Origin: Hydrolagus colliei
Lineage: Eukaryota
NCBI GenBank assembly: GCA_035084275.1
Contig: CM068754.1
Coordinates: 12,152,001-12,216,000 of the forward strand
Reading direction: 5' to 3'
Length of the DNA: 64,000 nucleotides
Positions 35,044-57,290 of the stretch are shown here, piece by piece. Every line of letters begins with the position of its first letter. Positions within the stretch are counted from its first letter, which is position 1. Both the position numbers and the translations under genes were made by a program. The notes beneath the pieces were generated by a model. It searched no databases. It saw nothing but the letters and a program-made list of their open reading frames with translations, and had not been told where the DNA came from.

Positions 35044-35904
35044 ACAACAACAACAACAAATTACACTTATAAAGCGCCTTTCACGTCGGGAGGACGTCCC
35101 AAGGCGCTGCACAGGAGTCGTGTGACCCGAGCTGGGAGGGGAGTGTACGGGAAGGGGTGAAACACGAAGGGGAGGTCGACGAATTCGGGGTGGAACAAAA
35201 GGCACGATCGAAGAGGAAAGTCTTCAAACCGGCCTTGAAAGAGGAAAGGGAAGAAACGAAACGGAGGGATTGAGGGATGGCATTCCATAAGGTCGGAGCA
35301 GAAAAACTGAAGGCCCGGCCTCCGATGGTGGGGCGGTTCGGGCGGGGGGCTTGGAGCAGGCCAAGTCCTGCTGAACGGAGGGTCCGGGTGGGCGTGTAGG
35401 GGGAGAGTAAATCGGTTAATTAGGGTGGGGAAAGGCCGTGTAAGGCCTTGTAGGTGAGGACGAGGATATTGAACTCGATCCTCTGGAGGATGGGGAGCCA
35501 GTGGAGACGGGCGAGGGTGGGGGTTATGTGGTCGCGGAGGCGGGTGCGGGATAGTACACGGGCTGCAGAATTTTGGATGGCCTGCAGCCTGTGAATGGAG
35601 GAACTGGGGAGGCCGACGAGGAGAGAGTTTCCGTAATCCAGCCGTGAGGTGATGTACGCGTGCACTAGGGTTTCGGCAGCGCGGGGGGTAAGATAATTGC
35701 GGAGCCTGGCAATGTTGCGCAAATAAGCGGTGCCGGTCAAGGCGCGGATGTGGGGGAGGAAGGAGAGTTTTTGATCGAACATGATGCCGAGGTTCCTGAC
35801 TGGCTTTGTGAGGTGGAGAGTGCAGCCTTGGATGTTGAGGCTGGCAGCGCCCGATGTGCGGAGGCGCTGGCTTGAGCCGATCAGGAGGGCCTCGGTCTTA
35901 CTCA
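35044..35904 (-). mobile_element. 5'-truncated, relatively young L2 LINE (C-terminal ORF2, 3' UTR, (GTT)n tail)
   Basis: KTEALLIG...VRNLGIMFD..LSF..HI...LRNIARLR..L...AAETLVHAYITSRLDYGNSLL.GLP.....LQ.IQNSAAR....HITP.L..LHWLP...RIEF..L...YKALHG. GC- and CpG-rich; one in-frame stop. Confidence 0.95.
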
Positions 35905-37623
35905 AACCATTAAAGTCCCTCAAAAATGCATTGAAACCTTGATTTCAATGCATTAATGTGGAGGTACCCTTACTAGCAGTCAGAACTCATGTTCTTTTCT
36001 GAGAAAAAAATAATTGACTGCTGGAAGAGATTATTAACAGCGAGGGGGGATTGGAATGTAGCTAAACAAGAAGTGACTGCACTGACTGATCCAACGCCAC
36101 CATTGGCCCCCTGTATTTGAGCTCCAATTTGGGGGGGAATGGCGGAGTGGGGGTTTGGATGGGAAACAAAAGTTGTAAGTTTTGGCCACGTGTTTTGTGG
36201 ATAACCCAAGATAAATTTTCTGCTTTGCATGTGATACATTCCAATAAGTTTTTATGGCTCCTGTAGAAACCATATTACAGGTGGAGCATATTTTATATAA
36301 AATCCCGTGTATTATTTGAAACATTGGTTTCAGAATGTTTGGGTTTTAGGAACTAGCTGATTTTTTTGTCAAAGTAGCTCGGAATACTCTCACGAAAATG
36401 CTTTACATACCATGCATGTGTTTTCACAACAATGTCATTTACAGTGGATAGATTCAAGCACTCGGAAAGATTGCAGCCTACACCTATCTATTTTGAATGT
36501 CTCTGTTTCCCTTGTGGAAGTCATTGTTTCTCACACAAGACTCACAGTCACCCTGAAATGTGATCTAAAGTCACCCTAAAATGTGCCTTCAGTGATCCCC
36601 ACCATCGATTCTGATCATTACTTAAAATGATTGTAAGACATTTTCAGCATTGAAGATAACCACGAAATTTAATTAGCAAATTAAAAGAAGATAGTCAATG
36701 GAGTTCGTCAATCATGACTAAATCCCAACTAAATTCCAATTGAAAGCCAGCAGCAAATCAAATATGTATTTTGTCATTCAGCTACCAATCCGATTAGAAC
36801 CCTCTCCATCCCAAATACTGTCTCACTGCCACAGTATTCCATTCCTAAAGCAGAAGAGCATTGTAGCGAAGTTCAATAGAATGAAACACAGATGTGCTAG
36901 GCTAAATCTTTCTGTTAGTTTTCACATGTGGTATCCCTCACGTCTGCTGGACTTCTAAATTAATTAATTATTTATCCAGTGAACAACAATACAAAAGCAA
37001 AATATTTAAAACAATTCGCACATTAATTAATAATTCGTCCTTTTCTTTCACAATGCTCCTTATTCCAGCCTTTTATTGTTTAGTGATTTTACATTTCATA
37101 CATTCAGAATTTTCGCGCTTTCAACTTGTTAACTCAAATGATAGGATCGGGAACCATACATATCTAGGGATAGAAATCCAAGAAAATGGATAATTGCCAT
37201 CACATTTAAAAAAAACATATTAAATTCATTAAAGAATAATTGATGGTGATGGTTATTTCAATGATTTCCATCTGGATTTATACCACCAAAAATCTAGAGT
37301 CAGGAACAATTGTATTTTATAGGAATGGATGTTTAAAGATAAACAAAACAGAAATACTGAAATTGAGGCCAAATTGAAACTACAAACCTATAATCTGACA
37401 CTCTTAAAATATAATGGTTTTCTAAAATTTGTATGTCAGGACATATTTTACATAGATTGTTTTATCTTTTTATTCAGACCAATCTTTCACTTTAATGTGG
37501 TCATCTTTCCAGCTTTTTAATATCAACATTAATTGAACTTGATCCAAGGGTTTCTTTAACTTCTATAGTGTTTGATCTAGTTCAAGAACAAATGTTCAAT
37601 TTGTTAGTGATTTAATTCATTAG

Positions 37624-53940: not shown

Positions 53941-55040
53941 TCAAGTTTCGGTATATTTAATAACTTTAAAAGTCTGCTCGTCCTCATCACCAGTGGAATA
54001 GTCGTGACTCTGATTTTTTGATAAGTTGGTGGTGTTTCTCCGTTGGCAAGTATACCAACCACTCAAGAGAGTGTCAGGGTTGGCAGGATGTCTGGTCGGT
54101 GAAGTGTAGGACGCTTCCGTTGGTCGAATGGAACTCAGTGAATCCAATGCAACAGCAGACCTATGGGGAGGCAAGGCATGGAATGTGGTGCCGCTCCGAT
54201 TTGCATTCAGCGGATTCAATCTACCGTCAACCCGATGTGAGGGAGATGAACCCAATCGGATTGAACACAACGAATCCATTCTGATGCCAGGTCGATGCAG
54301 TGGCAACAGGTTCATCCGGCCTTCACACCAGTTTGAAGGCGATGGACCTGCTCTGACACTAGATCGAATTAAAGACAGTGGATTATTCTTTACATCAGAC
54401 CGAACCGACGGTAATTGGCTCACACTGAAGTCAGACAGGGTTGACGTTAATCTCCCCAATGTACCAGCTTTCATTTCGGGCAACAGATCCATCGCAGCTT
54501 CAAGCCCTTTGGAAGCTGGTGGACATAAGGAAGCACTGGATCGCACTAGATTCATTTGACCGATGGTATTGTCGGACCTGGTGGAAGGCAACGGAGCCAA
54601 CGAATGGCCAGTTCTCGCCGAATGAAGATAATTAATTCTGTCTTCAGATCTATTAGTTGGCAGTGAACCCAATAAGACACCTGACTTGGTTGCAGAGGAG
54701 GAACATGTCTTATCCTCAGATCGATGGTAAGCTATTGGATAGCATAAGGCATTGGGCCTGCTTGACAGAGGATCTGCAGAGGGACAAATGTCGCTTTCTG
54801 TGTCCGAATAAGGCATTGCGCTGAAACCTTCACGCTCGCAGTTGATTGAAAGGGTCGGTTTGCAGTGCATTTTCATGTGTTTTCGAAGGGAACTTGGATG
54901 TGTGTAGGATTTATCGCAATCTTTAATTTTGCAGATGTACGGTTTGTCGCTTGTGTGAACGTGAGAATGTTTTTTGCGGTCACTGCTGTTGGCAAACCTT
55001 CTGTCACAGCCTTCAAATTCGCATTTGAAAGGTTTTTCAC
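53941..55040 (-). CDS. zic6: Zic6-like coding exon 2 (ZF4, ZF5, long repeat-containing C-terminus, stop codon)
   Basis: Acceptor ttctctatttcag|GT GAA AAA CCT completes the split Gly of TGEKP. ZF4-5 read [63 protein letters not shown] resembles the Zic C-terminal EWYV(CQ) motif. TGA at 53941-53943. 1051+1100 nt = 717 codons including stop. Confidence 0.93.
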
Positions 55041-56239
55041 CTGAAATAGAGAATAAGTAAAGCTCTTTCATAAACACATCAAATCTGAAACAATTAAAAA
55101 AAAATTCAATTAAATATTCAAATTCTCATTATAGACCATTTATATGCATTTTGCTCTCTAACCTACAAACATTTTAAAGAGACTGATACATGCCGAACGC
55201 TTATAAACCCTGTACAAATGAAGTGTTGCAATATCAAAATAAATACCTATCCTTGCTACCCAAACAATATCGCCCAAACCTGCTCAAAGCAAATGTTCCC
55301 AGGTCAGATTTTGTTCCTGGTGTACTCTTTGCACAATAAGCACTACTACATTAATCTGCTGATATAAAAAAAGTTCATCCTGATTTCTTAAGTAAATTGA
55401 GAGGGACAATTTGTAAATAGATTCACATGCGAGTCGTTTTATCAGTCCTACAAATGCAATTGAAGCAAATATCAATGTTACGAATGGGTTATCCATACAT
55501 ATATATGTGTATACATATGTATGGATGTATATAGAAATATATATACATCTATATTATCTGTTCTCTCCCTGACTAGAAGACACCTATGTGCTAAAGTTCA
55601 CAGAAAACTAAAGTGTGAGAATTTTTACATTTAGGAGACGAATTTGGTTTGCAAAATGTTAGAATTCTATGACTGATTCAATTAATGTTTTTTTTAAAGG
55701 TTGATTATCTTTTGATATATGTGTATACAGTATCAAGACACTTGTAAACATCCTAAAACCAAACATGTATGGTGATGCTTTAAGTTGCGAAAACAACCCC
55801 CACACAATACGCCTATTAATTACTGATTAAATCTATCCTTTAGAAGCTAGTTCAATAAGTAACTGTCATAAACAATTGGACGATTAAAATCTCTAATCAG
55901 TACATACAAAATGAAATAGTGTAATGTGTCGACAAATGTGTGTGTTTCATATTCAGACCAGCTTCGTTTACAGACATTTGGCTACATAAAGTTTCACATT
56001 GTTATGCATAATTAATTACTTAACATATATAATTATGATAACATTTGAATGTAATAGTATTCGATAGACCACTTTTTGTACTTGTTACCCTTCCGGAATC
56101 TTAAATTTAATGTTAAACTGATGTATACATGCATTTGTTTTCTTAAACAAACAATAAGTCCAAAATGCCCCCCCCCCAAACAAAAAAACTTCTCAAAACA
56201 CTCATAGAGAAATGTTGTTTTTTAATAAAAAAAACCAAC
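55041..56239 (-). other. GT-AG intron (1199 bp) at the conserved Zic position in the ZF3/ZF4 linker (HTG^EK)
   Basis: gt at 56239-56238 and ag at 55042-55041; phases are compatible. Confidence 0.92.
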
Positions 56240-57290
56240 CTGTATGAGTTCTTTTATGTATCTTCAGATTCTCTGATCTTGCAAATACTTTTTCACAGCC
56301 GGCAAATGGGCAGGGAAACGGTTTTTCTCCAGTGTGTACTCTGAGATGGTTTATAAGTTTGTATTTAGCTTTGAAGGCTTTCTCATCCCGGGGACATTGC
56401 TCCCAGCAACAAATGTGAGTTGACTGTTCTGGTCCTCCAACGTGTTCCACGGTAAGGTGGGTTACTAACTCATGCATGCTGCTGAATGTATTCGAGCAAC
56501 ACTTCTTCGAAGTTTGCTCTTGGCTAATCCACTTGCAGATCAACTCTCTTTTGATGGGCTGCTTCATGTACCTAAAAAATTGACCTGCCCCGCCATGAGT
56601 GGCCAGGCTGACGTTCAAATTCATCGGTTTGTAGCTTTGAAGTAAGGATGTCACATAATGATCACTTCTTGGAGCCGTCACTTGGTTGTAGTGACGTGAT
56701 CGAGCCATAAAATCCTCTGATATACCCAGGGAGACCTGGCCGCCATTGACAGCCCTGGCGGAGGAGGTGGCGTGAGGGCTCTGGTCGTGCAAGCCAGACA
56801 TAAAAGGGTGGCTTCCAGTTTCTGCATGGCTGCCAGAGTCATGGTACCGTCCCGTGGCAGAGACAAACAAGCCATGGTGGGAACCTGTGGAGGAATGTTG
56901 ATTCGCCAGCCCAGGCATGGTGGGTGCCGAGAGATCTCGCCTCAGGAGCAGATCCCTGCTGGTTCCTAAGCCGTGACCACCGTAGCCCGAATAGGATTGA
57001 TAGGGGGGTGGATAGTTAACGCAGGGCGTCACCGCGCTCTCGGGGTATTCTGGTATGTTGTGCGAGGGGCTGAGTTTTAAGGAGACACCTGTGGCGTGCC
57101 CCAGGTTCTCCACAGCCAAAGGTGGCGGCGCCCCGCCGAGGTCGGCATGGCTCTCCCCGGGATAAACATGTGACAGAGAGTAGCCGCTGAACCTTGGCAA
57201 TGCCATCATGTTCTGTTGGGAATGGTGCTGGGCTCTTGGCAAATCCACTAATCTGAGCGCGGAGATCCGGCTGGAAGGAGCAGTGTCCAT
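56240..57290 (-). CDS. zic6: Zic-family C2H2 zinc-finger transcription factor, most likely Zic6; coding exon 1 (N-terminus, ZF-NC domain, ZF1-ZF3)
   Basis: ATG at 57290. Contains ZF-NC ([17 protein letters not shown]) and ZF1-3 (...[17 protein letters not shown]...[44 protein letters not shown]). Ends ACA G|gttggt, a phase-1 donor at 56239. No ZOC box, so subclass Zic4/5/6. [37 protein letters not shown] and GCEKVF resemble teleost Zic6 as I recall it. Zic identity is near-certain; the Zic6 paralogue call is about 0.85. Confidence 0.93.

Follow-up and report, generated by a model that had tools for sequence, protein, structure and literature searches.

A degenerate 12-residue tandem repeat in the long C-terminal tail of chondrichthyan Zic6

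Tandem repeats within proteins can keep the number and order of their units largely unchanged since deep speciation events, with high divergence between units and no recent unit turnover. The survey that describes such ancient conserved repeats presumes that most of them fold and evolve slowly (Schaper et al. 2014, PMC3995336). A short tandem repeat also lies C-terminal to the DNA-binding domain of Nanog, a developmental transcription factor whose tryptophan repeat needs its defining aromatic residue for Sox2 binding (PMC3746198). The C-termini of ZIC proteins likewise carry regulatory functions. PMC4564895 describes a C-terminal regulatory region with the motif NEWYV and reports that ZIC1 without its last 11 residues, which hold the related NEWYV, shows increased activity in a Xenopus assay, and PMC7403390 states that the ZIC3 C-terminus is required for transactivation and that Subclass B ZIC proteins act only in a multi-factor context.

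Here we describe a degenerate 12-residue tandem array in the C-terminal tail of Zic6 from the chimaera Hydrolagus colliei that resembles each of these systems in part. As in ancient conserved repeats, unit number and order have been largely kept since deep speciation, divergence between units is high and there is no recent unit turnover; unlike what that survey presumes of most such repeats, the Zic6 array is predicted to be disordered, evolves faster than any other part of its protein and has been eroded in several lineages. As in Nanog, a short tandem repeat follows the DNA-binding domain of a developmental transcription factor, but the Zic6 array is without an invariant residue or aromatic periodicity, and the likeness implies no homology. 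A WYxC motif near the Zic6 C-terminus is the putative counterpart of NEWYV in other ZIC proteins (PMC4564895), although it sits ~220 aa further from zinc finger 5 (ZF5) and the two residues preceding its tryptophan differ.

The window we analysed is a 64,000-nucleotide stretch of H. colliei contig CM068754.1; all features below lie on its minus strand unless otherwise stated. The spliced frame read from the sequence, with one stop, gives a two-exon Zic gene of 716 aa, the same length as in a preliminary description of this DNA. Coding exon 1 (56240..57290) begins with the start ATG at 57290 and encodes the N-terminal region and zinc fingers 1-3, as delimited by its open reading frame, splice donor and Pfam domains (zf_ZIC, zf-C2H2_15 and zf-C2H2). 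A single predicted GT-AG intron (55041..56239) lies 3' of zinc finger 3, with a GT donor after 56240 and an AG acceptor before 55040. Coding exon 2 (53941..55040) encodes zinc fingers 4-5, the entire C-terminal tail and the stop codon (53941-53943). Exon 2 is 85% identical to Callorhinchus milii XP_007892917, and by its exon 1 the gene clusters with Callorhinchus, at 93% identity, and with six elasmobranchs. Matches to PF18366 (E 5e-24) and to PF23561 and PF00096 (above cut-off) place the protein in the ZIC family; a Pfam search of the tail matched no family.

A family search of the same genome revealed a second Zic gene head-to-head with the first, ~10 kb off. This partner is a divergent, Subclass-A-like Zic (G000:C21:12219297, plus strand), which from its position and N-terminal sequence we take to be Zic3-like. 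An FGF-family gene lies ~167 kb beyond the partner (12386981-12418533). The gene therefore has the head-to-head Zic3-like partner and the linked FGF-family gene expected of a Zic6 orthologue, and because this synteny matches the zebrafish order zic6-zic3-fgf13a (PMC6771876), the gene is, as judged by synteny, zic6, which bears out the identity first proposed. For the Callorhinchus orthologue, the best ESM Atlas clusters carry the name "Zic family member 6". In a tree of chondrichthyan Zic proteins and duck Zic4, with Heptranchias omitted, the window protein and 7 chondrichthyan proteins form a 100/100 clade separate from the duck protein and from the three other Zic genes of the genome. The gene shares with known Zic6, a member of ZIC Subclass B (Zic4, Zic5, Zic6), the five-finger ZIC domain, the head-to-head Zic3-like neighbour and the FGF gene beyond.

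Across the genome, 4 Zic loci were scored among 29 candidates, forming two head-to-head pairs on C6 and C21; an expected third pair is absent from the scored loci and may be unscored or missing from the assembly. Both pairs have an FGF-family gene on their Subclass A side (G000:C6:42301898-43208253; C21:12208430-12418533), an arrangement that fits paralogous blocks dating from genome duplication in early vertebrates. The window also holds a 174-aa stop-free frame (35420-35944) that may resemble the C-terminal part of a LINE retrotransposon ORF2.

Between ZF5 and WYxC, periodicity and unit profile delineate a degenerate tandem array (aa 445-655; 54127..54759) of 18 units as parsed. The preliminary description had the right stretch, and its unit lengths (sixteen of 12 aa, one of 11 and one of 8) sum as stated to the 211 aa of the array (16x12 + 11 + 8), but its boundary at 54124 takes in the next arginine codon, the array itself spanning 54127-54759. 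We measured protein periodicity by BLOSUM62 autocorrelation against 5000 shuffles over lags 2-60. Lags 24 (z 6.29) and 12 (z 5.86) were the top two of 59 (family-wise p 0.0002 each), and the signal persisted when the region was set without the initial parse, from the end of ZF5 to WYxC (z 5.64 and 5.05). The same autocorrelation found no periodicity in the N-terminal 248 aa (z 0.66 at lag 12). Compared with codon shuffles, the DNA displayed peaks at lag 72 (z 8.9), lag 36 (z 6.6) and lag 108 (z 4.7), a periodicity at least as strong as that of the protein. Identity at lag 72 was 0.41, 0.46 and 0.39 by codon position, third positions included, versus a background of ~0.26. Across 120 unit pairs, mean DNA identity was 43%, and 4-fold sites matched at 0.38 versus 0.25. 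The proposed 12-aa and 36-bp periods are thus both significant against shuffled sequence, and adjacent units show the periodic self-similarity that marks a protein tandem repeat. These results confirm that the repeat is real.

The unit register was evaluated with a PSSM from five shark and ray orthologues, each unit's own orthologue being left out. The parsed register ranked first among 12 offsets for 15 of the 16 full-length units. Unit 1 scored -12 bits and units 13 and 17 were weak; the array flanks scored below zero, and 0 of 237 N-terminal 12-mers exceeded 4 bits. The profile supports units 2-18 (54127-54723), about 17 of the roughly 18 units originally counted, and leaves unit 1 doubtful. 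The commonest residues in the window's units are arginine at position 1 (12/16), serine at position 2 (9/15), leucine at position 9 (10/15) and proline at position 10 (7/15). We call the array cryptic because Tandem Repeats Finder reported no array in this region and an exact-seed repeat search returned no 36-bp family; the array is too degenerate for such standard finders.

The signal at lag 24 equals or exceeds that at lag 12, in keeping with an earlier suggestion of a 24-aa alternation, but parity barely matters in the DNA (same-parity units 0.449 and 0.427 identity, opposite-parity 0.424), so the alternation is a hint only and typing the units as A or B by parity is unsupported. A higher-order duplication had also been suggested. 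The significant lags 56 and 59 are those that the two short units would yield (48+8 and 60-1), and the matrix of unit DNA identities shows no block pattern; this suggestion is therefore not supported. Protein and DNA searches of the same genome with the array recovered the array alone (1 match each). Neither search points to a satellite or transposon dispersed in the genome as the source, though the DNA search is insensitive at such divergence.

We retrieved 17 chondrichthyan orthologues, all with a homologous tail. The distance from ZF5 to WYxC is 207-268 aa in 16 orthologues and 269 aa in the window, versus 45 aa in the Zic5-like gene of the same genome and 48 aa in duck Zic4 (207-269 versus 45-48 aa overall), in agreement with the unusual tail length noted at the outset. 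By total length only, rather than by tail, Atlas Zic6 representatives (525-527 aa) are shorter than the chondrichthyan proteins (595-731 aa). Four short Callorhinchus UniProt models and duck Zic4 were omitted from tail analyses, and Heptranchias was clipped at the point of divergence of its model and did not enter the tree-length and gap analysis. A 12- or 24-aa period was significant (family-wise p<0.05) in 8 of 18 sequences: both chimaeras, Heterodontus, Cetorhinus, Heptranchias, Pristis, Narcine and Scyliorhinus canicula. It was undetectable at that threshold in the other 10, including stingrays, skate and carpet sharks.

Some gene models raise the possibility that this region is normally untranslated, with splicing removing it after ZF5 or near the start of the tail, and that the long open reading frame is an artefact of gene modelling. 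Four UniProt Callorhinchus models (438-504 aa) skip the array, and the Heptranchias model departs from the tail part-way, after unit 13. We regard this explanation as very unlikely. The short Callorhinchus models also lack WYxC, whereas RefSeq's model for Callorhinchus runs collinear with the window (268 versus 269 aa to WYxC), and the frame stays open as far as WYxC in 17 of 18 sequences although indels are numerous. The kept frame of the preliminary description thus extends across the orthologues, although it needs no repeat-specific cause because a conserved motif lies downstream. Separately, three RefSeq models have unrelated C-terminal ends, before WYxC in Heptranchias (P0014) and after it in Pristis (P0004) and Narcine (P0016); these ends may be gene-model or assembly artefacts.

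The array is bracketed by two conserved motifs. Just before it and shortly after ZF5, alignment column conservation identified a nearly invariant acidic Ser/Thr motif (aa 428-433; 54793..54810), in each column of which at least 15 of 18 sequences share a single residue; we take this hexapeptide to resemble a candidate acidophilic-kinase site. Beyond the array, the orthologue alignment places WYxC at aa 679-682 (54046..54057). It is present in 17 of 18 sequences and missing just from the divergent Heptranchias model.

The order of units is common to chimaeras and elasmobranchs, so the array predates their split. That split dates to ~400-420 million years ago. The old repeat that was first envisaged is in this respect upheld, with the tail found in all 17 chondrichthyan orthologues. 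Chimaera and horn shark arrays are 46% identical and differ by just four indels (gap runs of +4, -1, +1 and +12 versus Heterodontus); some ordinary purifying selection thus acts on the tail. The +12 gap, an extra 12 aa in the two chimaeras in the region of unit 18 (54127..54162), is the sole whole-unit indel seen, its precise placement being alignment-dependent. Evidence from beyond the chondrichthyans is limited. Tail-only homologue searches gave 3 matches among 3032 candidates and 1 among 2087, and their lack of bony-fish matches is weak evidence because most shark orthologues were missed too. A whole-protein search (E<=1e-150) retained 17 of 8000 scored, with no bony-fish Zic6 among them.

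We compared constraint across the protein by fitting one fixed topology to 16 species and measuring tree length. The array was the fastest-evolving part of Zic6 (5.06), followed by the N-terminal region (3.03) and the zinc fingers (1.31). Gap spans per 100 aa followed the same order (17.9, 12.0 and 0.6). In the array, 1 of 32 gap spans was a multiple of 12 and 31 were off-register, which is not how an array with a kept register and whole-unit indels would evolve. As an observation on the gene at large, the zinc fingers of chondrichthyan Zic6 are not frozen (171 columns, tree length 1.31), and carpet sharks and stingrays have long branches over the whole protein; both may reflect relaxed constraint on the entire gene.

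The off-register indels bear on whether the units build a small solenoid or other periodic fold, as the preliminary description had ventured. The 12/24-aa period and the recurring hydrophobic positions 6 and 9 would suit such a fold; the Pro/Ser-rich sequence would not. An AlphaFold2 prediction made with 18 sequences gave array pLDDT values of 38-46, all below 50, with no secondary structure, though its power is limited given that ZF4 was poorly predicted in the same model (pLDDT 48-57). Mean pLDDT in ESM Atlas models was 0.47 and 0.42. A PDB sequence search gave no match at E<=1, and an ESM Atlas feature search with the horn-shark tail gave no usable match, with structure rows at TM<=0.26. 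The prediction thus contains no folded, periodic secondary structure, and consensus positions are no better conserved than others, unlike the core of a solenoid; we consider a periodic fold extremely unlikely.

The units could instead work as a functional multivalent module, in which stickers of the form Arg...hydrophobic-Pro/Ser bind a partner or drive condensation. Unit number would then outweigh exact spacing, as in the Nanog tryptophan repeat, and the module would be strong in slow lineages and in the course of being lost in carpet sharks and stingrays. Several properties of the array are compatible with this idea. It has a net charge of +10 and contains 9% Arg, 17% Ser and 13% Leu; length and register have long been kept in chimaeras, horn shark, basking shark and sevengill shark; and ZIC C-termini regulate transactivation (PMC7403390, PMC4564895). 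Position 1, which is mostly arginine, evolves ~20% slower than the array mean (p 0.013, minimum over 12 positions); rates vary among unit positions (p 0.0095), and position 1 accounts for 6 of the 13 array columns that are near-invariant. This slowness may be a residue effect, because arginine relative to its own region is at least as slow in the N-terminal region (0.64) as in the array (0.71). In a multivalent array of the Nanog or Pol II CTD type, selection would keep the key residue of the unit across copies and species; position-1 arginine is modestly slower, but no more so than arginine elsewhere in the protein.

Other measurements weigh against a selected repeat pattern. Conservation among elasmobranchs was 0.63 at consensus-matching cells (n=68) and 0.60 at others (n=113), and residue-matched Ser, Leu and Pro were no more conserved at consensus positions. 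Site rates in the array are near homogeneous (gamma shape 5.2). Unit-unit similarity decays at a passive rate: across 16 elasmobranchs, whose species points are not phylogenetically independent, the regression of ln(excess unit-unit identity) on branch length had a slope of -1.85 +/- 0.16, where passive decay expects -1.76, and the Spearman correlation with an independent rate axis (N-terminal region plus zinc fingers) was -0.875. In carpet sharks, unit-unit similarity is almost at random level. The unit-divergence and decay analyses excluded units 1, 3, 10 and 18 as well as the two short units. The array is nearly free of aromatic residues. With just 2 S/T-P and 4 RxxS/T sites, it gives no positive sign of a multivalent or phosphorylation role. 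Selection on the periodic pattern, as originally inferred, is mostly not supported, given the off-register indels, the lack of a significant period in 10 of 18 sequences, the passive decay and the lack of preferential conservation at consensus cells. We consider a functional multivalent module unlikely. A specific version, in which cartilaginous-fish Zic6 gained a lineage-specific regulatory array of ~17 multivalent, Arg-anchored units that slow lineages retain and that is now being dismantled in carpet sharks and stingrays, seems to us quite improbable; if true, it would equip this Subclass B factor with a new surface for interaction or condensation.

Rates also vary along the array. Units 10-18 have a shorter tree length than units 1-9 (4.16 versus 5.93), and units 10-16 are better conserved than units 1-9, which suggests unit-specific patches of possible function, mainly in units 10-16. 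JTT distances between units (1.6-1.85) are about twice those between orthologous arrays of chimaera and sharks (0.78-0.95), and for 6-7 of 12 units the best match is the unit's own orthologue. Because units are so far apart and often match their own orthologue best, ongoing homogenisation is argued against. Between-unit dN/dS was ~0.46, a value we judged unreliable since dS is near saturation. Extrapolated by hand, the decay regression gives a mean unit identity of about 40% when chimaeras and sharks split, by which point the units would have been well diverged. Either the array is older than the chondrichthyans or it was fast-evolving at first.

Taken together, these data favour a probable origin of the tail as an ancient in-frame exonic tandem expansion that is now likely a weakly constrained, disordered spacer ahead of WYxC. 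A 36-bp exonic unit, perhaps amplified as a 72-bp pair, would have been duplicated in frame in the last exon before the chimaera, shark and ray lineages parted. Slippage or unequal crossover could have stretched a short tail to ~270 aa, and turnover of the units would have ceased upon their divergence, as in the ancient conserved repeats of PMC3995336. Selection may afterwards have preserved the reading frame, a rough composition and a few unit-specific patches, but not the repeat pattern. In our working model, the tail would serve as a flexible tether running from the acidic motif beside ZF5 to WYxC at its far end, and by analogy with other ZIC C-termini it might tune context-dependent transcriptional output.

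The main survey of Zic conserved domains is reportedly that of Tohmonda et al. 2018. Judged by titles and the starts of abstracts, literature searches listed no paper on the repeat or on chondrichthyan zic6, and Tohmonda et al. 2018 and Keller and Chitnis 2007 may bear on them; PMC13328068 and PMC6175831, in their available parts, have no bearing on the repeat. The array is apparently a real, so far undescribed feature of a familiar kind, and it seems to amount to neither a new domain nor a new mechanism. The gene itself has been said to remain in teleosts only (PMC4467302, PMC6771876). Chondrichthyan zic6 is intact in the window (53941-57290) and in orthologues P0003-P0023, which contradicts those statements. 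RefSeq labels these genes ZIC 1-like, ZIC 3-like or uncharacterized.

Zic6 thus offers a clean and datable case of a disordered transcription factor tail grown by tandem duplication and then eroded across sharks and rays, in a gene found intact in chimaeras, sharks and rays against teleost-only accounts. The growth of the tail dates to more than 400 million years ago. With an erosion rate that can be measured, the array can serve in teaching or as a model of how disordered regions originate.
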